Made by a program: the position numbers and the translations under genes
The notes under the pieces: model-generated
Told to the model about the DNA's origin: nothing
Seen by the model: only the letters and a program-made list of their open reading frames with translations
The model's database searches: none
IMG/VR virus record: IMGVR_UViG_3300013885_000001
Span: 1 to 63,263 of that record
DNA: 63,263 nucleotides
Origin: a virus
Taxonomy: Duplodnaviria; Caudoviricetes
Direction: 5' to 3' (one strand)
Shown here: piece after piece, positions 299 to 22,675 of the stretch
How positions within the stretch are numbered: position 1 is the first letter of the stretch
How the letters are laid out: the number at the start of each line of letters is the position of its first letter

Positions 299-2467
299 AT
301 GAATAAAGACACATATGATGTAGAGCTTGTTTGGCATGGAAAACGACATAAGGAGGTAGAGACAACAAGCACCTCATTCTTTTCAGAAAAGGGTTGGGAG
401 AACAAACTGGTATGGGGTGATAACAAGCTTGTAATGTCCTCGTTGATAAAGCAAGGCTGGGTTGGGAGGATCAATTTGATTTATATTGATCCACCCTTTT
501 TCACGAACAGAAGTTATCATGCTAAGGTGAAACCTACTGATGAACCAAGGGAAGAAGGCTCTATTAATTTGAAACCAGCTTTCTCTGATGTTTGGAAAGG
601 TGGGATTGCTTCTTATCTTCAATACATGTATGAAAGATTGGTATTGATGAGGGAGTTGTTGGCTGAAAATGGTTCTATTTATGTGCATTGCTTTCATCCA
701 GAGACGCCAATATTGATGGGGGATTTCACCCTTAAGAATATCCAAGATGTACAAGCAGGAGACTTAGTTGTATCAGATACCAATAGAGTAAACAAAGTTG
801 TGAGAAAATATAGAAGACCTTATAAAGGAAAGTTGTTGGAAATCAGATATATGGGTAATGTTATCCCCCTGAAGGTTACACCTGAGCATAAGTTTTTTGC
901 CATAAAGAAAGTGTGGAGAAAGAAAATCAGAAATAAATTTAAAAATGGAATAAGCAATAATCTTCATAGTGAGTTTATAGAAAAAATTAGAGCAGATCAA
1001 TTGGAAATAGGAGACTATCTTATCATACCTATAAATGGTGAAATTACTAAGGGAAAATCTTTTATAGAGACCAAAAAATTTATTAGTGAATCTGATACAC
1101 GCTCCAAAAGCATTCCAGAGAAAATTCAAATTGATGCAAAATTCATGCGATGGATTGGGTATTATCTTGCTGAAGGTATGATAGATTATTCTGCTACTAC
1201 TGGTAATCCATCTGGTGTAAATTTTACAACGGGATTAAATGAAATTCATTTGCATGAAGAAATAATCACCTTGACTAAAGAGATATTTAAATTGGATGTT
1301 ATAAAGGTACCTCTTCCTAAATATGGAGGAATGAGGTTAAGGATATGTAGTAATCCTTTAGGTAAACTTATTGAAATTTTATGTGGAACTGGAGCAGGTA
1401 AAAAAAGGTTACATCCCCTTTTCATGACACTGCCGCCTAAATTCCAATATGAGATATTTGATGCGTGGGCTAAAGGTGATGGTTGGAATTACAAAGGACC
1501 AAGAAATGAGAATTCTACAATTGTTGGAACAGTTTCAAAAGAATTAGCATTGCAAATGTTTATAATTTTATTACGAAATCATAAAGGTCCAAGATTAGAG
1601 ATAAGTAGAAATCCCAATGTACTAAAAGATAATCATCATCTTCCTTATAGAATAGTATTGCCTCTTGGTGAAAGGAATAGCCCACGGCACTGGATAGAAG
1701 GTAGATATCTCGCTGTTCCAATTACCTCTATAAGGAAATTTGACTATGAGGGAGATGTATTCAATTTAGAGGTGGAAAACGACCACAGTTATTGTGCTGA
1801 TTTTGTAAAAGTAAGCAATTGTGATTGGCATGTAGGACATTACGTAAAAGTAATGATGGATGAGATTTTTGGGTATGAGAATTTTGTTAATGAAATTGTA
1901 TGGTGTTATACAGGTCCGAGAAAGATATCAAGAGCTTTTTCAAGAAAGCATGATATCATACTACTTTATTCCAAAACTCAAAATTATACATTTAACCAAT
2001 TGACAGTACCTCATAAAAGTGGTCTCCATGACACAGGTATAGTTGAGACTTTTGGAAGATTGAGAGGCGAACGCATTCCTCAAGAACAAATCAAGGAGTT
2101 GGAAGAGAGAGGTAAACTCTTAGAGGATTGGTGGGTAGATATTTGGGCTACAGAGAGATACAGGAGCGAATTATTGGCTTTCGACACCCAAAAACCTGAA
2201 GCTCTTTTAAAAAGAATCATCCTTGCATCCTCTAATCCAGGAGATATTGTAGCTGACTTCTTCTGTGGTTCAGGGACAACATTGGCAGTAGCAGAGAAGT
2301 TAGGGAGAAGATGGATAGGATGCGATTTATCCAAGTTTGCGATTCAGGTTACAAGAAAAAGATTATTGAATATTCATAACTCTCATGATCTGCTTAGTGA
2401 GAAGAAAACAAAGAGAAAGTATGGTAGGTTTGTGAGACTGTTCCAGATTTTGCAGTGTGGTTTATGA
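299..2467 (+). CDS. N6A/N4C DNA methyltransferase (Mod-like, beta class) interrupted by an intein
   Basis: LIYIDPPF catalytic motif, TQKPEALL, DFFCGSGTT SAM-binding motif; conserved IYVH/CDWH segment is split by an insertion. Confidence 0.9.
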   Translation: MNKDTYDVELVWHGKRHKEVETTSTSFFSEKGWENKLVWGDNKLVMSSLIKQGWVGRINLIYIDPPFFTNRSYHAKVKPTDEPREEGSINLKPAFSDVWKGGIASYLQYMYERLVLMRELLAENGSIYVHCFHPETPILMGDFTLKNIQDVQAGDLVVSDTNRVNKVVRKYRRPYKGKLLEIRYMGNVIPLKVTPEHKFFAIKKVWRKKIRNKFKNGISNNLHSEFIEKIRADQLEIGDYLIIPINGEITKGKSFIETKKFISESDTRSKSIPEKIQIDAKFMRWIGYYLAEGMIDYSATTGNPSGVNFTTGLNEIHLHEEIITLTKEIFKLDVIKVPLPKYGGMRLRICSNPLGKLIEILCGTGAGKKRLHPLFMTLPPKFQYEIFDAWAKGDGWNYKGPRNENSTIVGTVSKELALQMFIILLRNHKGPRLEISRNPNVLKDNHHLPYRIVLPLGERNSPRHWIEGRYLAVPITSIRKFDYEGDVFNLEVENDHSYCADFVKVSNCDWHVGHYVKVMMDEIFGYENFVNEIVWCYTGPRKISRAFSRKHDIILLYSKTQNYTFNQLTVPHKSGLHDTGIVETFGRLRGERIPQEQIKELEERGKLLEDWWVDIWATERYRSELLAFDTQKPEALLKRIILASSNPGDIVADFFCGSGTTLAVAEKLGRRWIGCDLSKFAIQVTRKRLLNIHNSHDLLSEKKTKRKYGRFVRLFQILQCGL
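689..1819 (+). mobile_element. Intein (377 aa) with LAGLIDADG homing endonuclease
   Basis: Starts CFHPETPILM; block B VTPEHKF; IGYYLAEG and AWAKGDG motifs; block F VFNLEVENDHSY; ends VSN followed by Cys+1. Confidence 0.9.
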
Positions 2468-2524
2468 TGTATTATAGGATGTATATTATCACTGGAGAAA
2501 TCATAAGAGACCCATAGTTATTTA

Positions 2525-2544
2525 AGAAAACTCTTAAACAATAT
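2525..2544 (+). promoter_or_regulatory. Conserved viral promoter-like motif upstream of hsdM
   Basis: AGAAAACTCTTAAACAATAT; 9 related copies in the genome. Confidence 0.75.
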
Positions 2545-2564
2545 ATGAAAGATAAGAGAATGAG

Positions 2565-4106
2565 GTGAGTAATACTATGAATAATAAACTCGATATAAAG
2601 GCACTGGAAAACTGGCTTTGGGAGGCAACATGCAAAATCAGGGGTCCTATTGACGCACCAAAATATAAAGATTACATTTTGCCTCTCATATTCTTAAAGA
2701 GACTTTCCGATGTTTTTGAAGATGAATTAGATGCACTTTCCCAGAGATATGGAAGTAAAGATATTGTTGAACAATTATTGACAAAGGATCATAGTATAGT
2801 CCGCTTCTATCTCCCTAAGGAAGCTAGGTGGGAAGAGATTGCAAAACAAACTTCAAATATTGGAGAGTATTTAACCGATGTTGTTCACATCATTGCCAAA
2901 GAGAACCCTGAGCTTTCTGGTGTAATAGATATAGTGGATTTCAATGCCACCACTGCTGCAGGGCAGAGGATTATCGATGATGAGAGGTTGAAAGCACTAA
3001 TAAATATTTTAGGAAGATACAGATTGGGATTAAAAGATGTTGAGCCAGATATCTTAGGGAGAGCTTACGAATACCTTTTAAGGAAATTTGCAGAAGGTTC
3101 TGGGCAGAGTGCGGGGGAGTTCTATACACCCAAAGAGGTAGCTGTATTGATGTCTTACATTTTAAATCCTGAACCTGGTAATGAAGTGTATGATCCTTGT
3201 TGCGGTTCTGGCGGTTTGTTGATCAAATGTTATCTACGGTTTAGAGATAAATATGGTGCTGACACCTCTATCGAGCCTCTTAGACTCTATGGACAGGAGG
3301 TTTTGTCTTCAACTTACGCTATGGCAAAGATGAACGCTTTTATTCACGATATGGAGGCAGAAATCGCTCTTGGAGACACAATGAACAAACCAGCATTTTT
3401 AACATCTGAAGGATCACTCAGAAAATTCGACTTAGTAACTGCAAATCCTATGTGGAATCAAGCATTTGCGCAATCTGTTTATGAAAACGATCCTTACAAT
3501 AGATTCGTTTTTGGTTATCCTCCATCAAACACCGCAGACTGGGGCTGGATTCAGCACATGTTTGCTTCTTTAAACGATCATGGAAAGATGGCTGTTGTGT
3601 TGGATACGGGGGCTGTTTCAAGAGGAAGCGGTAATGTAGGAAAGAATAGAGAGCGCGATATAAGAAAGGAGTTTGTTGAGAGGGATTTTATAGAAGCGGT
3701 TTTATTGCTGCCTGAAAACATGTTTTACAATACTACCGCACCGGCGATTATCATCGTTATCAATAAGGCAAAACCCATAGAGAGAAGGGGACAGATACTT
3801 CTTATAAACGCTTCAAAGCTCTATGAGAAGGGAAGACCTAAGAATTTCTTGCCTGATGAAAGCATTGAAAAGATAGCAGACATCTATTTGAACTGGCAGG
3901 AAGAGGAGGGAATAAGCAAGATCATAGCGAAGGATGAAGCCGTAAAGAGCGACTATAACTTAAGCCCTTCCCGTTATGTTGCCCAGAACGGAGAAGATGA
4001 AACGTTGCCTTTGGAGGATGCTGTTGTGCAGTTAAAAGAGGCAGAAGAAGAGAGAAAAGAGGCGGATGAAAAATTAATGGTTATTTTGAAAGAGATGGGA
4101 TTGTAA
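2565..4106 (+). CDS. hsdM: Type I RM methyltransferase subunit
   Basis: LENWLWEA N-terminus, GEFYTP, YDPCCGSGG, ANPMW, YNLSPSRY. Confidence 0.93.
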   Translation: MSNTMNNKLDIKALENWLWEATCKIRGPIDAPKYKDYILPLIFLKRLSDVFEDELDALSQRYGSKDIVEQLLTKDHSIVRFYLPKEARWEEIAKQTSNIGEYLTDVVHIIAKENPELSGVIDIVDFNATTAAGQRIIDDERLKALINILGRYRLGLKDVEPDILGRAYEYLLRKFAEGSGQSAGEFYTPKEVAVLMSYILNPEPGNEVYDPCCGSGGLLIKCYLRFRDKYGADTSIEPLRLYGQEVLSSTYAMAKMNAFIHDMEAEIALGDTMNKPAFLTSEGSLRKFDLVTANPMWNQAFAQSVYENDPYNRFVFGYPPSNTADWGWIQHMFASLNDHGKMAVVLDTGAVSRGSGNVGKNRERDIRKEFVERDFIEAVLLLPENMFYNTTAPAIIIVINKAKPIERRGQILLINASKLYEKGRPKNFLPDESIEKIADIYLNWQEEEGISKIIAKDEAVKSDYNLSPSRYVAQNGEDETLPLEDAVVQLKEAEEERKEADEKLMVILKEMGL

Positions 4107-4143
4107 TGATTAAGGACGTGATATCTAAAAGGGGTATGGCAAA

Positions 4144-5643
4144 ATGCGTATTTTATTAGACACAAATATTCTTATTCATAGAGAGGATGATAAGGTAATA
4201 TCTAATAACCTACAATCACTATTAAGAACGCTAAGTAGAATGAAAACTGAAATTCTCATACACCCATTATCTATCAATGAATTGAAACGGGATAAAGATG
4301 AAGAAAGAAAAAAAATAATAATTTCAAAAGTTCAGTCCTACTCCCTATTAGAATCTCCCCCAAATCCCAAAAATGACACTGAGTTTAAAGACAAGGTAAA
4401 TTGGAGGGAAGAGGAAAAAGATATAGAGGATAACATCCTACTATATGCTGTTTACAAAGATGCTGTAGATTTTTTAATTACAGAGGATAAAGGAATCCAT
4501 AAAAAAGCGAAAAATTTGGACATTGATAATCGTGTTTTTCTTATTGATGATGCTTGTGAAATATTTGAAAAAAGTGCACAGACACCTAAAATAACACCCC
4601 CTCCAGCATTGAGAGAGGACTCTGTCTATAATTTGGACATAAACGACCCAATATTTAACCAATTGAAAAAAGATTATCCTGAGTTCGATGATTGGATTAA
4701 GAGAATATCAAGAGAAGGCAGAAAATGTTGGGCGTATTATCGAGAAGATGATAGTATAGGTGCATTACTTATCTATAAAACTGAAGATGAGCCAATAGAT
4801 TCAAAACCTCCGTTACCAAAAAAGAAGAGGTTAAAGTTATCTACATTCATAGTTACCCATGTGGGGCATAAGATAGGAGAACTTTTTATAAAGCTATCTG
4901 TTGATTTTGCTGTTAAGAACAATATCTCAGAGATTTATTTGACCCACTTTACTGAGCCCAATGACCGATTAGTGCAATTAATCACAGAATATGGTTTTTA
5001 TAGGACGGCAGTAAATGAAAGGGGGGAAGATATTTTTGTTAAAGAATTGGTTATTCAGGGGAGATTTGAATATAAACATCCAATAGATGTTGCTAAGAGG
5101 TTCTATCCCAGCTTTTATGATGGTGCACACGTAAATAAGTTTGTAATCCCAATTCAACCTAAATATCACAACAGACTTTTTACTGATTTTTCAGAACGAC
5201 AAACAACAATTACTGAGCATGCTGGGGATTTCATAGTCGAAGGAAACACGATTAAAAAGGCGTATCTAACTCATTCAAGAATAAAAAAGATGAGAACCGG
5301 AGACATTATTTTGTTTTATCGTTCTCAAGAGCAGAGCGAGATTACTTCACTTGGAGTTATTGAATCGGTCTATACTAGAATTCAAAATCCCGACAAAATA
5401 ATAAGGCTAGTGGGTAAAAGATCTGTTTATACAATAAAAGAGATTGAAGAATTTGCTAATAAGCCAACAACTGTTATCTTATTTCTGCATCATTTTCATC
5501 TAAAGAACCCATTACATCTTGATAAATTGAAAGACATGGGAGTTCTAGCTGGGGCTCCTCAAACCGCAGTTGAGATTGATGATAATAGCTACAATAAAAT
5601 AAAAACCAGAGGTGGTATAGATGAACGTTATACTATCCATTAA
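4144..5643 (+). CDS. PIN - GNAT - PUA/EVE(ASCH)-like multidomain protein
   Basis: N-terminal LLDTNILI...FLITEDKG (PIN); central LKLSTFIV..GHKIGELFI...YGFY (GNAT); C-terminal IPIQPKYH...IKKAYL...GDIILFYRS (PUA-like). Confidence 0.8.
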   Translation: MRILLDTNILIHREDDKVISNNLQSLLRTLSRMKTEILIHPLSINELKRDKDEERKKIIISKVQSYSLLESPPNPKNDTEFKDKVNWREEEKDIEDNILLYAVYKDAVDFLITEDKGIHKKAKNLDIDNRVFLIDDACEIFEKSAQTPKITPPPALREDSVYNLDINDPIFNQLKKDYPEFDDWIKRISREGRKCWAYYREDDSIGALLIYKTEDEPIDSKPPLPKKKRLKLSTFIVTHVGHKIGELFIKLSVDFAVKNNISEIYLTHFTEPNDRLVQLITEYGFYRTAVNERGEDIFVKELVIQGRFEYKHPIDVAKRFYPSFYDGAHVNKFVIPIQPKYHNRLFTDFSERQTTITEHAGDFIVEGNTIKKAYLTHSRIKKMRTGDIILFYRSQEQSEITSLGVIESVYTRIQNPDKIIRLVGKRSVYTIKEIEEFANKPTTVILFLHHFHLKNPLHLDKLKDMGVLAGAPQTAVEIDDNSYNKIKTRGGIDERYTIH

Positions 5644-6028
5644 ACCGAAGTACGTGGAATCCATAATGAACGGTGAAAAACTATATGAATTCCGCAAAAG
5701 CATGTTTAGACGAGAAAACGTAGATAGAGCTTACATATATGCCACTTCACCAATTAAAAAAGTTGTTGGAGTTTTCATTATAGGAGGTATTATAGAAGAA
5801 CATCCAAATCGACTATGGGAGGAATGCGGCAATTATTCAGGATTAACTGAATTTGAGTTCTTCAGATATTTTAATGGAAAAAATAAGGGAGTAGCAATTG
5901 AGATAAAAGAACTAGAAAAATTCAACGAACCGTTAGAACTTACGGACATATTTCCAAATATTGTGCCACCACAATCATTCTGTTATGTAGATATGTTCGT
6001 TCCTGCCGGAGGAACAAAAGATGAATAA
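5621..6028 (+). CDS. ASCH domain protein
   Basis: ILSIKPKYVESIMNGEKLYEFRK, IYATSP, PPQSFCY. Confidence 0.88.
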   Translation: MNVILSIKPKYVESIMNGEKLYEFRKSMFRRENVDRAYIYATSPIKKVVGVFIIGGIIEEHPNRLWEECGNYSGLTEFEFFRYFNGKNKGVAIEIKELEKFNEPLELTDIFPNIVPPQSFCYVDMFVPAGGTKDE

Positions 6029-9000
6029 CGACGAACCTGAAGGATACAAAAAGACAGAACTGGGCTTATTGCCGAAGGAGTGGGAGGTTGTGAGATTAAA
6101 AGATGTGGTGACTACAAAGAAAGGTAGGAAACCAAAGACATTATCAGAAGATATTAAGAAAGATTATTTACCATACCTCACTGCAGAATATTTTAGAACA
6201 AAAAGAGCAAAACAATTTGCTTCAACAAAAAACGAATCTCTTATTACTGTTGATAAGGAAGATGTTGTTTTTATTTGGGATGGTTCTAATGCTGGTGATG
6301 TTTTTACAGGTCTGAATGGTGTACTTGCCTCTACAATGATAAAGATATCCCCAAAAAAAGAGAGCTCATTAACAAGGAAAATATTATATTACTACCTAAA
6401 AACAAAATTTTACCAGTTCAATACACAAACTACGGGCTCAACTATTCCCCACGTTAACAAAAACATGTTTGAAAATTTACTTATTCCTCTTCCTCCGCTC
6501 TCTGAACAAAAAAGGATCACTTTTGTTCTCTCTACGATACAGGAAGCAAAAGAGAAGACCGAAGACGTTATAAAAGCAGCGAAAGAACTCAAAAAATCCA
6601 TGATGAAGCATCTCTTCACTTATGGGCCTGTGCCTGTGGAAGAGGCGGAGAATGTGCCGCTCAAAGAGACGGAACTGGGCTTGTTGCCGAAAGATTGGGA
6701 GGTTGTAAGGCTGGGAGATGAAAAGTTTTTCCATATATTGGAAAGTGGAATTGATAGTTTTTCAGGTAAGAAATATTATCTTGCAACCAGCTCAATAGAG
6801 GGGCTGAAATTAATAGGAATTGAACAGGAGATAACCTTTAACAATAGACCATCAAGAGCCAATATGCAACCTGTTTTAAATAGCGTTTGGTTTGCCAGAA
6901 TGGTGGACACTCGAAAGGTTTATGCTTTTTCTGAAGATAATATTGAAGAGATAAACGGATACATTTTATCTACAGGATTTTGTGGTATTAAAACATCTCC
7001 AGAAGTAGACACAGCTTTTTTAAAATTCTATTTTTATTCAGACATCTTTAATAATCTTAAAAATTCTCTTTGCACTGGTGCTGTTCAAGTGTCATTGAAT
7101 AATACAAATGCTAAAAAATTATTAGTCCCACTTCCCTCTCTTTCTGAACAAAAGAGGATTGCCTTTGCTCTCTCTACAGTGCAAAAAGCAATAGAGAGGA
7201 CTGAAGACGTTATAAAAGCTACCAAAGAACTCAAAAAGTCCATGATGAAGCATCTTTTCACCTATGGGCCTGTGCCTATTGAAGAGGCAGAGCATGTGCC
7301 ACTCAAAGAGACGGAACTGGGCTTGTTGCCGAAGGATTGGGAGGTTGTGAGATTAAAAGATGTGGTGACTACAAAGAAAGGTAGGAAACCAAAGACATTA
7401 TCAGAAGATATTAAGAAAGATTATTTACCATACCTCACTGCAGAATATTTTAGAACAAAAAGAGCAAAACAATTTGCTTCAACAAAAAACGAATCTCTTA
7501 TTACTGTTGATAAGGAAGATGTTGTTTTTATTTGGGATGGTTCTAATGCTGGTGATGTTTTTACAGGTCTGAATGGTGTACTTGCCTCTACAATGATAAA
7601 GATATCCCCAAAAAAAGAGAGCTCATTAACAAGGAAAATATTATATTACTACCTAAAAACAAAATTTTACCAGTTCAATACACAAACTACGGGCTCAACT
7701 ATTCCCCACGTTAACAAAAACATGTTTGAAAATTTACTTATTCCTCTTCCTCCGCTCTCTGAACAAAAAAGGATCACTTTTGTTCTCTCTACGATACAGG
7801 AAGCAAAAGAGAAGACCGAAGACGTTATAAAAGCAGCGAAAGAACTCAAAAAATCCATGATGAAGCATCTCTTCACTTATGGGCCTGTGCCTGTGGAAGA
7901 GGCGGAGAATGTGCCGCTCAAAGAGACGGAACTGGGCTTGTTGCCGAAAGATTGGGAGGTTGTAAGGCTGGGAGATGAAAAGTTTTTCCATATATTGGAA
8001 AGTGGAATTGATAGTTTTTCAGGTAAGAAATATTATCTTGCAACCAGCTCAATAGAGGGGCTGAAATTAATAGGAATTGAACAGGAGATAACCTTTAACA
8101 ATAGACCATCAAGAGCCAATATGCAACCTGTTTTAAATAGCGTTTGGTTTGCCAGAATGGTGGACACTCGAAAGGTTTATGCTTTTTCTGAAGATAATAT
8201 TGAAGAGATAAACGGATACATTTTATCTACAGGATTTTGTGGTATTAAAACATCTCCAGAAGTAGACACAGCTTTTTTAAAATTCTATTTTTATTCAGAC
8301 ATCTTTAATAATCTTAAAAATTCTCTTTGCACTGGTGCTGTTCAAGTGTCATTGAATAATACAAATGCTAAAAAATTATTAGTCCCACTTCCCTCTCTTT
8401 CTGAACAAAAGAGGATTGCCTTTGCTCTCTCTACAGTGCAAAAAGCAATAGAGAGGACTGAAGACGTTATAAAAGCTACCAAAGAACTCAAAAAGTCCAT
8501 GATGAAGCATCTTTTCACCTATGGGCCTGTGCCTATTGAAGAGGCAGAGCATGTGCCACTCAAAGAGACGGAACTGGGCTTGTTGCCGAAGGATTGGGAA
8601 GTTGTGAGGCTTGGAGATAAAGGGCATTTTCAATATGGATATACTACTTCTGCTACAGAAGAAGACACAGGAACAAAATTTCTTAGGATAACAGATATAA
8701 AAGAAGATGGTGTTGTAAATTGGGACACAGTTCCTTATGGAATTATTGATGATAACCTACAAAAATTCAAGTTATTTGAAAATGATATCCTTTTTGCAAG
8801 AATAGGTGCTACCACTGGTAAAGCGTGCATAATTGAAGGAAAGATTCCAAACGCTGTTTTTGCTTCTTATCTTATAAGATTTATATCTAACAAAGAACTG
8901 AATCCAAAATATGTATTTTACTTTACTCAAACTAGAGAGTATCAGGAACTTGTTAATGCAGGAAAAGAGGGAAAATTGAAGAAAGGGCTGAGTGCTACTG

Positions 9001-9185
9001 AATTAAAAAACTTTAAAATCCCTCTTCCACCACTCTCAGAACAAAAAAAGATCGCTTCAATCCTCTCTGCTATTGATCAAAAGATCGAAGCCGAAGAGAA
9101 CAAAAAGAGGGCACTTGAAGATCTATTTAAATCGATGCTTAATAATTTAATGACTGCTAAGGTTAGGATTAGTAATGTGGATTGA
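6021..9185 (+). CDS. hsdS: Type I RM specificity subunit with five TRDs (A-B-A-B-C)
   Basis: Five LPxxWEVVRL...PLPxLSEQKxI units joined by the same coiled-coil conserved region. Confidence 0.92.
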   Translation: MNNDEPEGYKKTELGLLPKEWEVVRLKDVVTTKKGRKPKTLSEDIKKDYLPYLTAEYFRTKRAKQFASTKNESLITVDKEDVVFIWDGSNAGDVFTGLNGVLASTMIKISPKKESSLTRKILYYYLKTKFYQFNTQTTGSTIPHVNKNMFENLLIPLPPLSEQKRITFVLSTIQEAKEKTEDVIKAAKELKKSMMKHLFTYGPVPVEEAENVPLKETELGLLPKDWEVVRLGDEKFFHILESGIDSFSGKKYYLATSSIEGLKLIGIEQEITFNNRPSRANMQPVLNSVWFARMVDTRKVYAFSEDNIEEINGYILSTGFCGIKTSPEVDTAFLKFYFYSDIFNNLKNSLCTGAVQVSLNNTNAKKLLVPLPSLSEQKRIAFALSTVQKAIERTEDVIKATKELKKSMMKHLFTYGPVPIEEAEHVPLKETELGLLPKDWEVVRLKDVVTTKKGRKPKTLSEDIKKDYLPYLTAEYFRTKRAKQFASTKNESLITVDKEDVVFIWDGSNAGDVFTGLNGVLASTMIKISPKKESSLTRKILYYYLKTKFYQFNTQTTGSTIPHVNKNMFENLLIPLPPLSEQKRITFVLSTIQEAKEKTEDVIKAAKELKKSMMKHLFTYGPVPVEEAENVPLKETELGLLPKDWEVVRLGDEKFFHILESGIDSFSGKKYYLATSSIEGLKLIGIEQEITFNNRPSRANMQPVLNSVWFARMVDTRKVYAFSEDNIEEINGYILSTGFCGIKTSPEVDTAFLKFYFYSDIFNNLKNSLCTGAVQVSLNNTNAKKLLVPLPSLSEQKRIAFALSTVQKAIERTEDVIKATKELKKSMMKHLFTYGPVPIEEAEHVPLKETELGLLPKDWEVVRLGDKGHFQYGYTTSATEEDTGTKFLRITDIKEDGVVNWDTVPYGIIDDNLQKFKLFENDILFARIGATTGKACIIEGKIPNAVFASYLIRFISNKELNPKYVFYFTQTREYQELVNAGKEGKLKKGLSATELKNFKIPLPPLSEQKKIASILSAIDQKIEAEENKKRALEDLFKSMLNNLMTAKVRISNVD
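6081..8599 (+). repeat. 1257-bp in-frame tandem duplication inside hsdS
   Basis: 6081..7342 matches 7338..8599; identical shadow ORFs are offset by 1257 nt. Confidence 0.92.
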
Positions 9186-9231
9186 TTGATAATGGAAGAA
9201 AGAGAAGATTAAGTTAGGAGGAGAAGTTAGG

Positions 9232-11850
9232 ATGGATAATAAGTTTATAGAGATAGATTTTCCAATAAGATCAGTGAGCGATGAGTCTGCAAGAGAGAAG
9301 AACATAAGACATGGGCATATCTCCACATTACATATATGGTGGGCACGTAGACCTTTAGCATCTTCGAGGGCATCAATATATGCATCACTCACACCAGAAC
9401 CAGAGGATGAAGAAGAGAGGATGAAGAAATCACAGTTTATAGGTGAGCTATCGAAATGGGAGAACTCTTTAAACAAAGATCTCATTGAAAGAGCAAGGGA
9501 AGACATCTTAAAAGCGAACAATGGCAAACCACCGAAAGTCTTAGATCCTTTTGCTGGTGGTGGTGCTATACCATTAGAGGCTTTAAGGTTGGGTTGTGAG
9601 ACATATGCAAGTGATTTAAACCCAGTTGCTGTGCTTATAGAAAAATGCACATTGGAGTATCCACAGAAGTATGGACACAGAGAAGAAGATAGCTATTTTG
9701 GTGGTAAGACAACAAATCCTTTATTGCAAGATGTTAAAAAATGGGGATATTGGGTTTTAGAAGAGGCAAAGAGAGAGATTGGTAAATTTTATCCACCAGA
9801 AGAAGATGGCTCGATACCAGTCGGTTATATCTGGGCAAGAACTATCAGATGTCAAAATCCTGAATGTGGTGCTGAAATACCTTTGGTAAGACAAACATGG
9901 TTAGCTAAAAAGGATAAGAAGAAGATAGCATATAAGATCATCCCTAAAGGTAATAAAATAGACTTTGAGATTAAAGAGGGAGAAGAGATAAATTTTGATC
10001 CTAAAGAGGGAACTACTTCAAAAGCTAAAGTTATATGTCCATGTTGTGGTAGTGGTATAAGTGATAAAGATAACAGGAAACAATTTCAGGAAGGAAAAGC
10101 AGGGCAGAGGATGATTGCTGTTGTTCTCCATCATCCTGATATAAAAGGTAAAACCTATAGATTGGCAACAGACAAGGATTTAGATATCTTCAAAGAAGCA
10201 GAAGCATATTTAGAGAAGAAAAGATCGAAGTTGATGGGTGAGTGGGGAATTGATCCTGTGCCAGATGAACCACTGCCACCAATAGGAACTTTGGGTTTTA
10301 GTGTCCAAAGATATGGCATGACGAAATGGGGTGACCTTTTCAATTCACGTCAGAAGTTGGCATTGATTACTTTTGTGGAGAAGGTCCGACTTGCATATAA
10401 GAAGATGATCGAGGAAGGATATGATGAGGAGTATGCGAAAGCAGTTGTGAGCTATTTGGCACTGATGATAAGTCGCTGTTCTGATTTTGAAAGCAATATT
10501 GTTAGATGGTTTAATCATGTTGAAAATATATGCAATACATTTGCTCGGCAGGCTCTTCCCATAACATGGGATTACTTCGAACTAAATTTATTCTCTCCTG
10601 TTTCCCAAGGAACTATTAAAAGTATGTTTAATCAAATCACTAAAACAATGAAAGGCGCAGTGAATACTCTATCTTCTCCTGCTACCGTTTCCCAATCCTC
10701 CGCTACTTCTTTACCTTACCCTGACAACTACTTTGATGCAGTGATCACGGATCCACCATATTATGATAACGTTCCCTACTCCTACCTCTCTGACTTCTTT
10801 TATGTCTGGCTTAAAAGAACAATTGGTAATTTATACCCTGATCTATTTGCTACACCCTTAACACCAAAGAGCGAGGAGATTGTAGCTTATTCTCATAACA
10901 AGGGAGGTTTTGAAGAAGGGAAGAAATTTTTCGAGGATATGATAACTAAAGCATTTCAGGAGATCTACAGGGTTCTAAAACCTGAAGGTATTGCGTGTAT
11001 CGTCTTTACCCATAAGTCAACAGAGGCATGGGAAACTATTATAAACGCTCTTGTCGCATCAGGCTTGTATCTTACAGCTTCCTGGCCTATACATACGGAA
11101 ATGAAGGAGAGGTTAAGAGCGCAGAAGTCGGGTGCTCTGGCATCATCCATATACATGATCTGTCGCAAACGTGTAAATAAGGAGACAGCCTATTTCAATG
11201 AGATCAAGCTGGAGATCGAGCAGAGAGTAAAGGAAAAACTGGATCAGTTCTGGAACGAAGGTATAAAAGGAGCGGACTTTTTCATATCTGCCATAGGACC
11301 TGCAATGGAAGTTTTTGGGAAGTATGAAAATGTTGAAAAGCCTACAGGAGAGAAAGTATCCGCAAAAGACCTCCTTGAATTAGTGAGAAAGATAGTGATC
11401 GATTACACTTTAGGAAAGGTTTTAAAGACGCATATAGGGAGCGTAGATGCGGAAACAAGGTTTTACATCATATACCGCTTGAACTATGGTCAGGCGAAGG
11501 TTGATTATGACGATGCGAGGAAACTTGCTCAAGCGGTTGGAGTCTCTATAGAGGACTCTAAGTTGATAAAAAAGAGTGGAAGTCTCGTCTCGGTTTTAAA
11601 TGCAGATTATAGAGAACCTGGCGAGGAGAAGAGTATGATAGATGTCCTGCACTCTTGTTTATATTACCAGAAAAGAAACGATAGAGACTCTATAATAAAA
11701 CTGCTGGAAGAAAAGGGATATATAAACAACAACGATTTCTGGTGGTTTGTTCAGGCTTTATCAGAAGTCCTTCCTGATGGAGATAAGGAGAGGCAGATGC
11801 TTCAGGTTTTTATGTTTGGGAATGGTAATGTTGTCAGTAAGGTAAGGTAG
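9232..11850 (+). CDS. DUF1156-type adenine DNA methyltransferase with Zn ribbon
   Basis: [23 protein letters not shown], CxxxxC/CPCC, TDPPYYD. Confidence 0.88.
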
Positions 11851-11910: not shown

Positions 11911-11973
11911 AGGTAGGTACACACTATATATTAGAGAGAAAGAATCTCAAGAAATATGAGAAAGAAAAATTTT

Positions 11974-11993
11974 AGAAAACTCTTAAACAATAT
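11974..11993 (+). promoter_or_regulatory. Conserved viral promoter-like motif
   Basis: AGAAAACTCTTAAACAATAT. Confidence 0.75.
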
Positions 11994-12695
11994 GTGAGAG
12001 GTATGTTAAAAATGTCAATGGCTAAAACAATTTTAGAGAATGAAAGAATTGGATACCTAAAGGAGCAGAGAACAAGCAATTTGGAACTTGCAAAGCAATT
12101 TATAAACAATACCATCAAATATGAGAAGTTGATATTAGAGAGTCTTAAAGACATTACTAAGACTAAAATTATGACTGATGTATCCGCTCCCATACATTGC
12201 TGGGAGAAGCTTGGGTTAGACAAGTTCGGTATTATATCATGTGATGATAAGAGCAGGGAGATCAACTATGTTGAAAACGTACACCATCTGAAGCAAATTA
12301 ATTGGGACGAATTTATAAGACAATTAAATCTAAGAGGCAAACAGAGGAAGAAACTTGAGGCTGTAGCATCATCAGTCCAGAATTACATCGATATAGTGAG
12401 AGTTTTTGAAGAATGCCACAAGAAGGTGCTGGAGATTACAAATTGGAATATCGATGCTGTTGAGAGAGAAGTTACTCAAGTAGGAATAAGTCACACTGGT
12501 GAATATGTAATTTACATGAAGGATCGGGTGTGTCAATGTGAATACGGGCTTGCACTATCAGAATATCTGTTATTAGAACAGCTTTACGATGAGTTCCGCA
12601 GATTAAACATTCGATTTAAGTCTGATATCATAGAGGCAATAGATAACAACTTGCAAGTCTGTGATCAGTTGAGGGTCAGTCTTGAGAACATCTAA
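11994..12695 (+). CDS. Hypothetical protein (true start probably a few codons downstream)
   Basis: Long ORF behind the promoter motif, followed by a T-tract. Confidence 0.65.
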   Translation: MRGMLKMSMAKTILENERIGYLKEQRTSNLELAKQFINNTIKYEKLILESLKDITKTKIMTDVSAPIHCWEKLGLDKFGIISCDDKSREINYVENVHHLKQINWDEFIRQLNLRGKQRKKLEAVASSVQNYIDIVRVFEECHKKVLEITNWNIDAVEREVTQVGISHTGEYVIYMKDRVCQCEYGLALSEYLLLEQLYDEFRRLNIRFKSDIIEAIDNNLQVCDQLRVSLENI

Positions 12696-12723
12696 ACTGA
12701 TCTCTTATCTCTTTAATTTTTTT

Positions 12724-12743
12724 AGAAAGTTCTTAAATAATGT
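12724..12743 (+). promoter_or_regulatory. Variant of the conserved promoter motif
   Basis: AGAAAGTTCTTAAATAATGT. Confidence 0.6.
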
Positions 12744-12764
12744 GTGAATAGAGGTGTAATTGGG

Positions 12765-13418
12765 ATGGAGTTAATAAAAGAAGAAAAAGAATACTACATT
12801 AATAGATTACAAGAGGCTATATCTATAGTCAAAGAGGCATGTGGAGGATTAAATACCTCTCTTGTATCTACCGTTTTTGATAAGATAGCTGTGGATATAG
12901 TAGAACTTAGGAGGGAACAAGCAGGGTCTAAGAGAGATGGTGTTAAGAAGGCTACTGGTATAATGAGTGGAAAGAAAAATGATGATTCAGCTGGGAATGC
13001 TGGGGTTGTGAAATTAAATGATGGGGTTAAAGGTGAAGAGACGCAAGTTGGAAAGATAGATGCTAAGGATGTGTTTGACGTTATAGCTAAGTTGGAGACA
13101 CCTCGATATAGAGAGGATGGGCAGATGGCTGTAGCAGATCTGCTGGACGATGATATAGTAATTTCAGGCATTGAGAAGAGTGAAGATGATACCGATCCTG
13201 CTTATTTTATTAGCACATCGAAGGGAGTAGTAAAGACCTATTCGAAGGTATTAATTGGTCAGATACAGCATCTTGATGATAAAGGCTTACTACCAGTTAA
13301 AGGTAAGATAGTGAGGAGGGAAAGCTCAAGATCTCATAAGAATTATTATACATTTATCAAGTATCATGCCTCTTCTCTTAATCCTAAGAGAGGAGAATGT
13401 CTTCCAGGATACTTGTGA
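12765..13418 (+). CDS. Hypothetical protein, possible C-terminal OB-fold/SSB-like domain
   Basis: GAGGTG RBS before ATG 12765; beta-rich C-terminus ending KGKIVRRESSRSHKNYYTF. Confidence 0.5.
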   Translation: MELIKEEKEYYINRLQEAISIVKEACGGLNTSLVSTVFDKIAVDIVELRREQAGSKRDGVKKATGIMSGKKNDDSAGNAGVVKLNDGVKGEETQVGKIDAKDVFDVIAKLETPRYREDGQMAVADLLDDDIVISGIEKSEDDTDPAYFISTSKGVVKTYSKVLIGQIQHLDDKGLLPVKGKIVRRESSRSHKNYYTFIKYHASSLNPKRGECLPGYL

Positions 13419-13458
13419 CGTCATTTATCTCCTCTTTTCTTTCTAACCTTTTTCTGGG

Positions 13459-13746
13459 ATGGGAGGTAAGAAGATGAAGATGAAAGTGAAGTTTGATGAT
13501 GGTGGAGAGATGGAATATGAAGGTAAGAAAGTGGGAAATGAATTCTATATTGGAGAAAAGGCTGGGTATTACTTCATGCATCCGAAAAGAGCTCATGAGT
13601 TAGAGATCATAAATAAAGATACTATGGAATATGCCTATAGGCGGGGGTTTATGTGCTTGATGTATGCTAACTCTCTTCATCATAATAGAAAGAGGGAGTA
13701 TGACAAATTCATAGGGCTAGTTAAAGGATACTCTATTGAGGGATAG
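13459..13746 (+). CDS. Hypothetical protein
   Basis: ORF with GGAGGT RBS. Confidence 0.6.
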   Translation: MGGKKMKMKVKFDDGGEMEYEGKKVGNEFYIGEKAGYYFMHPKRAHELEIINKDTMEYAYRRGFMCLMYANSLHHNRKREYDKFIGLVKGYSIEG

Positions 13747-13768
13747 TAGAATCGAAAGATTTATATAC
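13745..13768 (+). promoter_or_regulatory. BRE-TATA promoter, second motif class, ahead of the packaging operon
   Basis: AGTAGAATCGAAAGATTTATATAC. Confidence 0.65.
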
Positions 13769-13803
13769 CCTTAGTATCATAGTATGTATTAGAGGTAAAT
13801 GTT

Positions 13804-14229
13804 ATGAAAAAGGATCTGTCTTTCAAAATGTGTGAGCTGTTTGAACAAGGTAAAACTGTAGAAGAGATAGCTGATATACTTAAAGTATCAGCACCAACAG
13901 TAGCTAAGTATTTGAAACAGAATGGATATCCCAAGTGTAGAAGATGTGGTGTATCATTAGCTGGTGAGAGACTAAACATGAGGTATTGTGAAACTTGCAG
14001 GAAGATAATTAATATAGAGATGGTTAGAAGATGTCAAAAGGCACATTGGGACCTTAAGAATATTAATGGTGTACATGAGCGATACTCTGTAAATGAGCTA
14101 TCTACTCATGGAGATCTTTATAATCTAAATGGCACCTTAGGGACGCTTGGGTTAGCGCAGCATTATGATACGTTTGAAGATGAGTGGGAGGCTATACAAA
14201 GAGAGCATGCAAGAATATTTGGTAGATAA
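13804..14229 (+). CDS. HTH plus Zn-finger protein
   Basis: GKTVEEIADILKVSAPTVAKYL; CRRC...CETC. Confidence 0.7.
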   Translation: MKKDLSFKMCELFEQGKTVEEIADILKVSAPTVAKYLKQNGYPKCRRCGVSLAGERLNMRYCETCRKIINIEMVRRCQKAHWDLKNINGVHERYSVNELSTHGDLYNLNGTLGTLGLAQHYDTFEDEWEAIQREHARIFGR

Positions 14230-15538
14230 AACAAGCCTTGTAGTGCATTCACCTAAATTATTTCTTTCTTATATTTTAGGCTTTGATCTTCAGCCATTCC
14301 ATAAAGAGTGGCTTGATCTCGTAGATAGAAATAGATTTACTCTCATTTTAGCACCCAGAGGATCGGGTAAGTCCACTGTAGTTACGGTGGGTTACTCCCT
14401 ATGGAAGGCATTGATGGATCCTCAATTACGTGTGCTTATAGTCTCTAATACACAAAGTCAGGCAGAGACTTTTCTTAGACTTGTCAGAAACCTTTGTGTA
14501 TCAGGTAAAGTAGCAGATATCTTTGGGGATGTGGTTGGAAGTGTATGGACAAATACGGAGTTGGAATTTAAAGGACATGGTAATCAAAAAGAAATGACGA
14601 TCACTGCTTTAGGAGCTAGTGGGGCACTGGTAGGACGACATTTTGACGTGATTATGTTGGATGATATATGTGATGGTAAAAATATGGCTACTGAGAATCG
14701 GAGGAGTAAAGTTTATGAGTGGTATTTCCAAACGCTACTTCCTATGCTTGAACCTGATGGTGAACTTCATATAATTGGAACGAGATGGCATGAGGATGAC
14801 TTCTATAATAGAATAAAAGGAGGTAACTATAAAACAAAGATTTATAAGGCATTGAATGGTAGAAAGTCATATTGGGAGGAGAGATATCCATATGAATTAC
14901 TTAAGAAGTTGAGGGCTGAATCTCCCACTACTTTTGAGATGCAGTATCAGAATGAGATCGTGCATAGTGAAGATGCTATATTCAAAGAAAGATATTTTAA
15001 GTATTATACAGTCTTACCTGATAATGTGGAGTTTTATCAGGGCATCGATCTGGCTGCGAGTGAGAGAGGGGACTACTTCGTGATTGTTACAATAGCGATA
15101 GATAAACAAACTAATGATATTTATGTAGTAAATGTGTTCAGGCAGAGATTGAGTTTATCTCGTCAGATTGAAGCAATAATTAAAATGGCAGAGAAGTATA
15201 AACCGATGAGGATAGGGATAGAGTCAAACGGTTATCAGTTAGCACTTGCCAGTGAGATGATTAAGCGATCCATGCTTCCCATTAAGAAAGTATATCAGGA
15301 GCGAAGTAAGATTGATAGAGCATCTAAGCTATCAGTCTTATTTGAAAATGGCACTATATTCCTACCTGAAAGGCGGATGAGGCTAATAGATGAGTTACTT
15401 GTATTTCCAAGAGGGAAGTATGATGATTGTGTTGATGCTTTGGATCTGGCTGTATCTGTAGCGAAGAAACGGATGACATGGAGTTGGGATGAGATTAGGA
15501 CTCGGATATTTGCTGGTAATTATGTTGCGAAGGTCTAA
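14165..15538 (+). CDS. terL: Terminase large subunit
   Basis: Walker A APRGSGKS, Walker B VIMLDD, IGTRWHEDD, nuclease GIDLA and YDDCVDAL. Confidence 0.93.
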   Translation: MIRLKMSGRLYKESMQEYLVDKTSLVVHSPKLFLSYILGFDLQPFHKEWLDLVDRNRFTLILAPRGSGKSTVVTVGYSLWKALMDPQLRVLIVSNTQSQAETFLRLVRNLCVSGKVADIFGDVVGSVWTNTELEFKGHGNQKEMTITALGASGALVGRHFDVIMLDDICDGKNMATENRRSKVYEWYFQTLLPMLEPDGELHIIGTRWHEDDFYNRIKGGNYKTKIYKALNGRKSYWEERYPYELLKKLRAESPTTFEMQYQNEIVHSEDAIFKERYFKYYTVLPDNVEFYQGIDLAASERGDYFVIVTIAIDKQTNDIYVVNVFRQRLSLSRQIEAIIKMAEKYKPMRIGIESNGYQLALASEMIKRSMLPIKKVYQERSKIDRASKLSVLFENGTIFLPERRMRLIDELLVFPRGKYDDCVDALDLAVSVAKKRMTWSWDEIRTRIFAGNYVAKV

Positions 15539-15618
15539 GTGAGAAGAGATTGGAGAGTATGTTTGAGGAAGATAGGATATGTCTGAGAATGTATGAATAT
15601 AGTGATATTGGGTTATAA

Positions 15619-16788
15619 ATGATGAGGCTAAGATTGCTTAATAATATAAGAAGGCTATTTAGGAAGAGGGGACGATTTGATGAGAAGTCATTATCAGCAT
15701 CTGTCTCTCAACCTCGTTTTTATGCTACATCTAATGAATATAGAAACTTTGCTTGGTTAAGAAATTATGAAAGGATATATCTAACTGATGGTGTAGTGTT
15801 TTCTTGTATTAATTCATTAGCACGGTATGTAGCCAGTACAGACTGGGATATTTCTTATAGTGATCCAGATGTTAAACAGATAGTTCAAGATTTTATAGAT
15901 AATACTATGTTCGATAGAAAGATGCTGACTATGGTTAGGCATGTCTTGATCTATGGTGATGCATTTATCGAGAAGGTGATGAATGCTAAAGGAGAGTTGG
16001 CTGATTTGGTGTTATGTGATCCTAAAACTATTGAGATCGGTGTTAATGAGTATGGAGAACCTGAGATGTATGTTCAACGGGTTGGAAATAAAGAAATAAT
16101 ATTTGAGCCTGAAGAAGAGATGATCCAGCTGAATTTCTATGACATACCAGGCAGTCCTTATGGAGCTTCAGTGGTAGGTGTAAATTATGATATAATAGTT
16201 AAGAAGATTAAGGTAGATGAAGCAATTGCAGCAGCCATCTTACATCATGGCTTTCCTAAGTTTCATGTATCAGTAGGATCAGCGTCAGAAGATATAATAC
16301 CATCTAAGGAAGTGATTGATGACATTGCATCTAAGTTTAAAGATATAAATTCAAAGAGTGAGTTTGTAACACCAGATCTTATACAAATTAAGAATATAGA
16401 TGCTAAAGGCATCGAACATATTGAAGACTACACATCATATTTCCTTAACTTACTTACAGCAGGGTTTTCTGTCCCAGAAGAACAACTTGGGTTAGGAAAG
16501 GGATCAACAGAGGCATCGGGTAAAGTAAGACAAGCTTTGTTTGAAAGAACGGTCAGGACCATGCAATCTCAATTAGAAACATTTGTCTCAAGGAAGATAT
16601 TTGATGTAATCACCTCTCCTTACGGTGGGAGTGCACAATTACAATTTAGAGATATAAGTCCAATAGATGAGGCAATGATCATAAAGTGGGTGGAGCCTTT
16701 ACTTAAAACAGATGAAGGAACATTTGCCATCCTTGCGAGAAATGAGATCAGGAGGCTATTCAATTTGCCTGTTACAGAAGATGAGTAG
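15619..16788 (+). CDS. Portal protein
   Basis: Follows terL; LIYGDAFIE, SPYGAS, GFSVPEEQLG, NEIRRLFNL. Confidence 0.88.
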   Translation: MMRLRLLNNIRRLFRKRGRFDEKSLSASVSQPRFYATSNEYRNFAWLRNYERIYLTDGVVFSCINSLARYVASTDWDISYSDPDVKQIVQDFIDNTMFDRKMLTMVRHVLIYGDAFIEKVMNAKGELADLVLCDPKTIEIGVNEYGEPEMYVQRVGNKEIIFEPEEEMIQLNFYDIPGSPYGASVVGVNYDIIVKKIKVDEAIAAAILHHGFPKFHVSVGSASEDIIPSKEVIDDIASKFKDINSKSEFVTPDLIQIKNIDAKGIEHIEDYTSYFLNLLTAGFSVPEEQLGLGKGSTEASGKVRQALFERTVRTMQSQLETFVSRKIFDVITSPYGGSAQLQFRDISPIDEAMIIKWVEPLLKTDEGTFAILARNEIRRLFNLPVTEDE

Positions 16789-16851: not shown

Positions 16852-17714
16852 ATGAAGAATCTGTTATTGATAAGGTATCCTGGTGGTAAACAGTATTTGT
16901 TAAAATTCCTACTTCCATTCATTCCTAACCATAAATATTATTTAGAGGTATTCGGTGGTGGGGCATCTGTATTATTGAATAAACCTAAATCATATTTTGA
17001 GGTGTATAATGATATTGATGAGTCATTAGTAAATCTATTTAGAGTTATTAGAGATAAGAGTAAGTATAAGTTGTTTAAAGAAAAGTTACGTTATGTTTTA
17101 TATGCTCGGTCAGAATTTGAGAAGGCGTTAGAGAATCTATATACACATGATGATGTTGATCGGGCAGTCAATTTTTATATAGTAAACAGGATGAGTTTTG
17201 CTTCGATGGGGAAATCATGGTCTCATAGCTTGGGATCACCTCAATGGTCGTTTCCTCCATCAGCTTGGGAGAATGCTAAGAAACGGATAGATGAAATTTA
17301 CGATAGATTTAAATCCGTGCAAATTGAGAATTCTGATTGGTTCGAAGTAATGAATCGATATAATTGGAAGGAGAGCTCGTTTGCTTATTTAGATCCACCT
17401 TATATTCTACCTGATAAAGGTAAGAATGGCTATTATAACCAATCGTTTAGTATTGAGGATCATGAAAACTAGTCGATTATCTCTCATCAGAAAAATGGAA
17501 TGGTAAGATAATGTTAAGTGGCTATAAGAATGAATTATATGAAGAGCTGGAAAAATATGGTTGGGTTAGGAGGGATACTGGGTATAAATTATCATTGCTT
17601 TGGTGTAAAGGGAAGGGAACGAGACCTTTAGTAGAAGAGAGTGTCTGGATGAATTATAATCCAAGCTCAGTTAGAAATCACGGACAATTAAGTTTGGATG
17701 AGTGCTCGATGTAA
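16852..17714 (+). pseudogene. Dam/D12-class adenine methyltransferase, frameshifted
   Basis: RYPGGK, EVFGGG, YLDPPY; stop at 17472, but one extra A at 17465-17468 restores DHEKLVDYL...KIMLSGY to 17714. Confidence 0.78.
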
Positions 17715-22516: not shown

Positions 22517-22675
22517 ATGGTAAGGAATAAGCTTAATGCTGAGATATTAGATTCTCAATTTTGTCAGATATGTGGTAGGAAGCTAAGAAGGGGCAAGAAA
22601 ATAAAGTTATGTGGTAATATATATGTTTGTGAAATGTGCTACAAGAATGAGGTAAAGAATAATGAAAGGCTATAA
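22517..22675 (+). CDS. 52-aa Zn-finger protein (not in ORF track)
   Basis: CQICG...VCEMCY. Confidence 0.55.
   Translation: MVRNKLNAEILDSQFCQICGRKLRRGKKIKLCGNIYVCEMCYKNEVKNNERL

Follow-up and report, generated by a model that had tools for sequence, protein, structure and literature searches.

Orphan methylases, encoded by viruses without a cognate nuclease, are already well known, and examples that act against restriction include the Dam enzymes of phages T4 and P1 and the multispecific C5-methylases of the Bacillus phages SPR, phi3T and rho11. Type I methylases and incomplete restriction-modification (R-M) sets have also been reported in gut phages, with 282 type I enzymes among 3,921 methylases in the part of that survey considered here (PMC10711547). 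We describe a locus that extends this picture, a methylation island at positions 299-11850 of IMGVR_UViG_3300013885_000001, a complete IMG/VR virus record of 63,263 bases that we analyzed as a whole and call the window. The record is classed as having direct terminal repeats, and 79 identical nucleotides (nt) at its start and end close it on itself. It encodes a large terminase, a portal, a prohead protease, an HK97-type capsid protein, a tail tube and a tape measure, together with PCNA, a histone fold protein, a family B polymerase, an ERCC4 nuclease, an ATP-dependent ligase and QueC. The matches of the capsid protein are solely haloarchaeal tailed viruses (9 records, 27-35% identity), and judged by these genes the window is the genome of an archaeal tailed virus. 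The island carries methylases of R-M type and none of the restriction partners sought. The explanation that we favour, with slightly better than even confidence, is that it is a recently assembled, promoter-driven self-methylation operon.

Six genes on the same strand fill the island: open reading frame 1 (ORF1), hsdM, PDC-M11A, PDC-M11B, hsdS and an hmaB-like gene, ORF6 (Table 1). Together they span 11,552 bases, or 18.3% of the record, which matches the estimate of about 18% in an earlier reading made from the letters alone (hereafter the sequence-only reading). The last five genes form a compact core operon (2577-11850), with gaps of 37 nt between hsdM and PDC-M11A and of 46 nt between hsdS and hmaB, and with overlaps of 23 nt between PDC-M11A and PDC-M11B and of 8 nt between PDC-M11B and hsdS. 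The promoter-like motif GAAAACTCTTAAACAATAT occurs in 7 copies in the record (at most 3 mismatches allowed) against 0.10 expected. A start codon lies shortly downstream of all 7, and one copy stands 33 nt 5' of the hsdM start. The claim that hsdM sits behind a virus-wide promoter motif thus holds, and for the hsdM operon the word "rewired" is justified. The sequence around the motif also appears as a 35-nt direct repeat flanking hsdM to hmaB; we considered this repeat as an insertion scar and rejected the idea, as all 7 motif copies share the extended consensus, each before a start codon. When the motif was used to search IMG/VR, 4 loci were found, none encoding a relative. One of them, on a 4.9-kb viral contig, shares only 38 nt (89%, its positions 1225-1262) with the motif region and has no protein similarity nearby.

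Table 1. Features of the methylation island and its edges, in positions of the window
Feature	Position	Strand	Supporting observations
ORF1, beta-class N6/N4 DNA methylase, 722 amino acids (aa) as encoded	299..2467	+	Pfam N6_N4_Mtase 1.9e-46, two stretches
Intein in ORF1, 371 aa	689..1801	+	N-terminal Cys, TPEH (block B), ends VSN before Cys+1
Promoter-like motif copy	2520..2554 (core 2526-2544)	+	followed by GAGGTGA and the hsdM ATG at 2577
hsdM, type I methylase subunit, 509 aa	2577..4106	+	Pfam N6_Mtase 9e-92, HsdM_N 1.7e-26
PDC-M11A, 499 aa	4144..5643	+	PADLOC PDLC04422 1.2e-165
PDC-M11B, 135 aa, ASCH fold	5621..6028	+	PADLOC 1e-48
hsdS, 1054 aa, five target-recognition domains A-B-A-B-C	6021..9185	+	Pfam Methylase_S 4.3e-97, 5 stretches
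hmaB-like DUF1156 adenine methylase (ORF6), 872 aa	9232..11850	+	PADLOC HmaB 7.3e-151, Pfam DUF1156 5.3e-22
Subsequent promoter-like motif copy	11969..12003 (core 11975-11993)	+	opens the next transcription unit, right edge of the island

As the sequence-only reading had proposed, three of the genes encode methylases of R-M type, assigned to N6_N4_Mtase (ORF1), N6_Mtase with HsdM_N (HsdM) and DUF1156/HmaB (ORF6). Their catalytic motifs are intact: DPPF at residue 64 and FCGSG at residue 655 in ORF1; DPCCGSG (motif I) and NPMW (motif IV) in HsdM, the latter common to 10 of the 11 homologs checked; and DPFAGGG (residues 105-111) and DPPY (507-510) in ORF6. The restriction subunits are absent. 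Six-frame hidden Markov model searches of the whole record, which were positive in control genomes, gave zero matches each to HsdR (TIGR00348), DUF499 (PF04465), ResIII (PF04851) and Helicase_C (PF00271), and Pfam scans of the 66 ORFs recognized none of these domains either. The proposed lack of HsdR, of a Res subunit, of the DUF499 ATPase and of a helicase partner is therefore borne out across the record.

The relatives of these genes keep such partners. The viral HsdM is 64-81% identical to the HsdM of 80 cellular loci, and among the 35 of them with at least 6 kb of downstream sequence, 33 encode an HsdR homolog, which lies 1.2-8.1 kb downstream of hsdM and on its strand (the HsdR domain set was verified by Pfam in 23 cellular loci, and partially in 1 more). 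The two exceptions, L047 and L051, are among the loci with the most similar HsdM (81% and 79%), and the queries used revealed no HsdS or HsdR homolog within 10 kb in them. The same trend is found in viruses: of 26 viral contigs with an hsdM homolog, 9 were excluded for having less than 3 kb of downstream flank, and HsdR lies downstream in all 17 that could be judged. For ORF6, 80 metagenome relatives align with residues 2-872 at 55-71% identity. HmaA is encoded upstream of the relative in 22 of 23 metagenome loci, L151 having no upstream flank, and HmaC downstream in 20 of 23, being unseen in L133, L163 and L166. In L166 (4112-15339), HmaA and HmaB are followed by Cmr6 and Cas10 of a type III CRISPR system in the place of HmaC, and in L163 an NsnB/AriA-like ATPase is embedded between HmaA and HmaB. 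A further 12 hmaB loci resemble these in the sizes of the pair of ORFs. Since the closest cellular and metagenomic relatives stand in complete hsdM-(inserts)-hsdS-hsdR and hmaA-hmaB-hmaC operons, the viral genes are equivalent to those parts of a type I operon and of the BREX-related Hma triad that methylate DNA. Host loci had been called "disarmed", a word that fits here only in the sense that HsdR, HmaA and HmaC are absent.

Pieces of the island occur elsewhere. Fourteen public runs from 6 studies, labelled as oil-field, crude-oil, wastewater or unspecified metagenomes, contain 25-50% of the sampled words of the island, and we compared contigs from four of the 14 runs. In two of the four, X1 and X4, contigs cover almost nothing of the backbone at 12283-16000, of positions 1-534 and of the intein at 1069-1602, gaps to which we attach no meaning. 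Contigs 90-100% identical to island genes (hsdM, PDC-M11A and PDC-M11B, parts of hsdS, hmaB) have different flanks, which depart from the virus at gene ends or no more than about 30 nt away from them, at 2577, 4102, 9181 and 11822. A copy of hsdM, which over 770 nt has 69 differences and 3 gaps, loses its upstream likeness exactly at 2577, and other contigs lead from the end of hsdM (4102) directly into the start of another hsdS, the usual arrangement without PDC-M11A and PDC-M11B. One contig for the end of hsdS has 11 differences and departs after 9181; the copies of hmaB have 19-46 differences per 420-470 nt and a different continuation past 11822. The exact PDC-M11B protein is found on 17 contigs, the longest of which (92,566 nt) exceeds the length of the virus. 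Relatives in complete operons, together with copies that diverge from the virus exactly at gene ends, are what one expects if hsdM, hsdS and hmaB were captured, as the sequence-only reading held.

Near-identical copies in other contexts would also be expected if a host fragment had been misjoined into the viral contig during assembly, and the repeat in hsdS described below is beyond short-read resolution. We regard such a chimera as very improbable because a public contig made by another assembler joins 92-261 to 1840-2672 with 0-1 differences, thereby running from the left-end non-coding sequence through the 3' end of ORF1 and the motif into the start of hsdM, because the record closes on itself, and because the motif before hsdM is virus-specific. 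The G+C content of the record, about 36%, is also uniform along it (32-41%). The joining contig is not independent proof, since its run may be the source sample.

The degree of identity bears on a second alternative, in which the island would have been acquired illegitimately and very recently from a cellular defence island, would have landed by chance behind a viral promoter, and would have no adaptive role and be heading for loss. Public contigs differ from the virus at 1 position over 3860-6085 and at none over 4047-6127, and in contigs of two runs the last recognition domain of HsdS with its distal region is identical over 8540-9067 and 8540-9086. A virus variant without most of ORF1, the odd five-domain HsdS and the lack of close relatives of PDC-M11A in viral contigs would also fit neutral hitch-hiking. 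Island genes have a slightly poorer codon fit and a lower third-position G-C skew than most backbone genes; composition is not decisive, because the differences are slight and the ranges overlap. Against such an origin, all five operon genes are open and retain their catalytic motifs, at the left junction hsdM begins directly behind the viral promoter motif and a ribosome-binding site, and nuclease and motor genes are absent from two different systems of which both methylases are whole. We therefore find neutral carriage unlikely, without dismissing it.

ORF1 differs from the other methylases in having an intein. It is 722 aa long because a 371-aa intein (residues 131-501) splits the methylase into exteins encoded by 299-688 and 1802-2467, predicted to give a protein of about 351 aa after splicing. 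The junction residues are C131, N501 and C502, and the penultimate His is replaced by Ser. The Intein_splicing profile matches it just below the Pfam cut-off (35.2 bits against 35.8, E 1.4e-08); endonuclease signals are weak (Hom_end_hint 0.002, LAGLIDADG_3 E 0.12), and a comparison of the intein with solved structures gave no match. Its insertion site is precise: in an alignment with the viral homologs L205 and L206, the intein-less L205 reads GSMYLH|CDWHAG across it. An intein-less allele is also represented by a public contig that connects 688 straight to 1822. L205 (1-1254), 38% identical to ORF1, is fused to a C-terminal Mrr_cat restriction-endonuclease-like domain, and ORF1 ends, without that domain, about where it would start.

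The sequence-only reading took ORF1 for a type III Mod subunit that had lost its Res. We do not file it so, because its exteins match small type II beta-class methylases and phage proteins equally well. In a phmmer search of PDB, the N-terminal part is similar to EcoP15I Mod 90-203 and the C-terminal part to M.MboIIA 93-244; the best solved relatives of the exteins are M.MboIIA, CcrM and M.RsrI, EcoP15I Mod matching the N-terminal part only. The best PADLOC models are of type III (6e-65) and type II (2.6e-60), and the region between the motifs is short. ORF1 belongs to the PHROG family phrog_67 (1.7e-51) and has relatives in 3 viral contigs at 30-52% identity. By these comparisons it appears to be an orphan methylase of a type that viruses often carry, interrupted by an intein and standing on its own upstream of the core operon.

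The pairing of HsdM and HsdS without HsdR, put forward in the sequence-only reading, stands as regards the absence of HsdR; the two genes are not adjacent, as PDC-M11A and PDC-M11B intervene. A duplicated hsdM tail around the embedded genes was sought and not found: 4000-4200 has no repeat in 5560-5700, 5900-6100 or 9100-9300. The HsdS itself has an unusual architecture, in which a conserved region of the central type follows each of the first four recognition domains and a distal one follows the last. The cores of the A, B and C target-recognition domains (TRDs) are mutually 24-27% identical. The A-B repetition comprises an exact tandem duplication of 1197 nt (6081-7277 = 7338-8534), and between the two 1257-nt units there are 19 differences, confined to 6023-6080. 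Short public contigs neither confirm nor refute this duplication, since many of them fit two places. Among the 21 HsdS-like proteins of 579-1845 aa found at E<=1e-20, the viral HsdS alone exceeds 905 aa. Short ENA contigs encode three HsdS-like proteins (P0123, P0124 and P0125; 641-680 aa) that cover 59% of the five-domain protein and may be three-domain forms.

A more daring interpretation treats HsdS as a type I subunit with several specificities, or else as a reserve of alternative first domains kept in frame, which recombination between the 262-nt conserved repeats could shorten; its TRDs would be those found in co-resident cells. A single viral pair of HsdM and HsdS would then pre-methylate DNA against several host type I specificities, as would the solo HmaB against Hma/BREX-related systems. 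We hold this to be a minority possibility. If true, Hma/BREX-related systems would have to discriminate self from non-self by methylation.

The hmaB-like gene is complete. Its copies depart at 11822, and a truncation of ORF6 at this position was considered and rejected, as metagenome relatives extend to residues 863-872. The NCBIfam model scores 231 bits on it, under a cut-off of 1000. A solo DUF1156 methylase is also found in the viral contig L123. Outside the island, the window has a fourth, D12/Dam-like methylase gene (16852-17711, + strand) with DPPY at residue 181. It is frameshifted: a TAG occurs at 17470, the C-terminal part of the family lies in another frame at 17466-17711, PHROG profile positions continue from 263 to 264 across the break, and a run of four A stands there. 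Sequencing error, pseudogene and slippery site are the candidate explanations.

The two genes between hsdM and hsdS do not fit an island devoted purely to methylation, since they form a candidate defence pair. Nor does the intein, with motifs that weakly resemble those of endonucleases. An AlphaFold AF2 model of PDC-M11A (predicted local distance difference test, pLDDT, 74.6) has a PIN domain at about residues 1-145, a GNAT domain at 155-305 and an ASCH/PUA-like domain at 330-490, and Foldseek relates it to ZmASCH and to many GNATs, TacT toxins among them. The PIN residues D6, D96, E114 and D115 are invariant across 31 sequences. The AF2 model of PDC-M11B (pLDDT 89.3) matches ZmASCH with a template-modelling (TM) score of 0.82, 30% identity and E 1e-12. 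ZmASCH is reportedly a single-strand RNase, and ASCH proteins are described as tRNA N4-acetylcytidine deacetylases in the part of a preprint considered here (bioRxiv 10.64898/2026.02.27.708502). A nuclease among the hypothetical ORFs had been named as a finding that would speak against the sequence-only reading. A PIN nuclease domain is indeed present, in PDC-M11A; the PIN-GNAT-ASCH protein is more likely directed at RNA, and none of the three methylases has it as restriction subunit.

More than 1,596 relatives of PDC-M11A were found at E<=1e-10 among 7,999 scored, in an archaeon or a Chloroflexi bacterium where the source names an organism, and the viral contigs searched held no close ones. 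In a sample of 401 genomes from one archaeal phylum, 35 encode the protein. PDC-M11A and PDC-M11B are adjacent in 18 of 20 loci examined, with an HsdM-like gene at most 8 kb away in 7 of the 20, and one cellular genome, L076, has hsdM, M11A and M11B in the same order as the virus (74%, 59% and 54% identity). Genes embedded in type I R-M operons are known from PrrC in EcoprrI. PrrC is also named as such an example in the source of the PDC systems, which presents them, in the part considered here, as 145 untested candidates picked because they lie within BREX, DISARM or type I loci (bioRxiv 10.1101/2024.01.29.577857). The pair is probably a passenger embedded in the type I operon.

In another conceivable use the island would serve for attack instead of protection: HsdM and HsdS of the virus could join resident host HsdR in a restriction enzyme whose specificity the virus sets and which acts on competing viruses or host DNA, with PDC-M11 as an abortive or backup effector in superinfection exclusion. 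In Staphylococcus aureus, hsdMS units work with a distant hsdR, and in Lactococcus, hsdS is carried on plasmids. Since hsdM segments 91-99% identical in DNA occur on public contigs with other flanks, subunits could be interchangeable. The pair is also intact, with its PIN acidic residues invariant, it forms a conserved module, and its embedding in defence systems is what made it a defence candidate in the preprint cited above, as far as the part considered goes. A new specificity combined with host HsdR would, however, also endanger unmethylated viral DNA early in infection, and PDC-M11 is no more than a candidate defence pair in any organism. An offensive role seems distinctly unlikely to us.

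Returning to self-methylation, the favoured explanation would work as follows. The operon would be read from the viral promoter motif. Cellular defence loci would have supplied its parts: from a type I R-M operon, the stretch that precedes hsdR, and from an Hma system, the methylase gene that helicase and ATPase genes flank. During replication, HsdM and HsdS would methylate adenines in bipartite targets set by the recognition domains, HmaB would methylate its own target and spliced ORF1 its own site. Because these enzymes would act on replicating viral DNA, progeny DNA would leave the cell bearing marks that matching restriction complexes of host strains take as "self", and would enter the next cell with marks accepted by type I and Hma-type systems of the same specificity. 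We infer expression, methylation and protection from the layout, the motifs and the missing subunits described above. Orphan methylases can also regulate genes, so the methylases might instead serve epigenetic control of viral or host expression, or DNA packaging, and not escape from restriction. The genes are of defence-system type with their closest relatives in restriction operons, and no link of the motifs to regulation was seen in the window; we would be surprised if this were their role.

Several observations weigh against self-methylation. The contig that joins the left end to hsdM represents a virus variant without 262-1839, from which most of ORF1 is removed. Because of this loss, and because the Dam-like gene is frameshifted, individual methylases are to be regarded as dispensable or decaying. 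The near-identity of the island to copies elsewhere means that there is no sign of selection within the virus. The five-domain HsdS might fail to assemble into an active M2S1 complex, and a pure shield leaves the intact PIN-GNAT-ASCH pair unexplained. Finally, in the sole experimental study of Hma that we considered, T4 from an HmaB-overproducing host infected no differently from wild-type T4, according to the part of the source used here (PMC11232893).

Other features of the window concern the virus as a whole. It has no close relatives among the records compared: its terminase reaches at most 38% identity across 42 IMG/VR loci, a search of 329 genomes from one archaeal phylum gave terminase matches at E<=1e-20 in 30 of them with no more than 36% identity, a search of 5 genomes found no terminase match, and a megablast of the island against phage records found none. 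Rfam and tRNA scans found nothing in the window, and scans for bacterial-type promoters and terminators gave counts not above those of shuffled sequences. A second intein of this 63-kb virus lies in the large subunit of ribonucleotide reductase (51113-53446, - strand; Intein_splicing and PT-HINT, residues 354-476). The whole window shows strong avoidance of short palindromes, with observed/expected ratios of 0.08 for CTAG, 0.09 for CGCG, 0.10 for GGCC, 0.29 for GTAC and 0.36 for CCGG; the ratio for GATC is 0.82. The virus seems to counter type II enzymes by avoiding their sites and type I-like systems by methylation. The QueC gene (53480-54109, - strand), alongside which no transglycosylase was recognized in the virus, a thymidylate-synthase-like gene (48935-49582, - strand) and a glycosyltransferase cluster with an S-adenosylmethionine (SAM) methyltransferase (22662-26877, + strand) could provide further modification of DNA or virion. 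At the left end, a 27-nt tandem repeat (3.9 copies, 38-141), partly within the terminal repeat, has two copies fewer in one public contig. The ORF-poor right end, with iteron-like repeats of 29/58 nt (62120-62261), may be the origin region.

What is new here is that an archaeal virus combines such genes and that two systems have been trimmed precisely of their motor and nuclease genes. Also new are the identity of the DNA for recognition domains with copies elsewhere, the PDC-M11 pair embedded in the operon, the stacking of domains in HsdS and an intein inside a DNA methylase. We found no literature description of an hsdM/hsdS operon without hsdR in a virus, nor of an intein in a viral DNA methylase, judging in both cases mostly from search results. 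The island is an unusually clean case, in which the "self-marking" halves alone of two multi-gene defence systems are kept while near-identical copies persist in the same kind of habitat. As a natural experiment it can test methylation gating in Hma/BREX-related systems, which the part of PMC11232893 considered here does not show. It also raises the questions of whether type I specificity subunits can be stacked and whether embedded candidates such as PDC-M11 function outside a complete restriction operon, and it adds a DNA methylase to the proteins known as intein hosts in archaeal viruses.

Compared with known phage orphan methylases, the locus is similar in having viral methylase genes without a cognate nuclease and possibly several target-recognition modules per polypeptide. 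It differs in that the known examples are single type II enzymes, whereas here a two-subunit type I pair and an Hma/BREX-related methylase are encoded, by an archaeal virus, with the recognition modules in HsdS and a defence candidate embedded in the operon. The likeness to the type I operon hsdM-hsdS-hsdR lies in the identity of HsdM, in the Methylase_S domains of HsdS and in a gene order that matches up to hsdS; the virus has no HsdR anywhere in the record, and five recognition domains instead of two. ORF6 is similar over its full length to the methylases that lie between HmaA and HmaC in the Hma system, described as DUF499-centred and BREX-related ("BR") in the parts of PMC11232893 and PMC12839542 considered here. 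Unlike them, the viral gene lacks the helicase HmaA and the ATPase HmaC and has hsdS and a viral gene as neighbours. Like other genes embedded in type I R-M operons, PDC-M11A and PDC-M11B stand between hsdM and hsdS, as in cellular L076. They encode a PIN-GNAT-ASCH protein plus an ASCH protein of candidate function, whereas the PrrC type is an ABC-ATPase anticodon nuclease, and they sit in a virus, in an operon without HsdR. Finally, the intein of ORF1 shares with those of archaeal and viral replication genes Cys1, TxxH, Asn-Cys+1 and an exact insertion relative to intein-less alleles, with a putative Hint splicing domain; in contrast to them, its host protein is a DNA methylase, its penultimate residue is Ser instead of His and its endonuclease domain is weakly recognizable.

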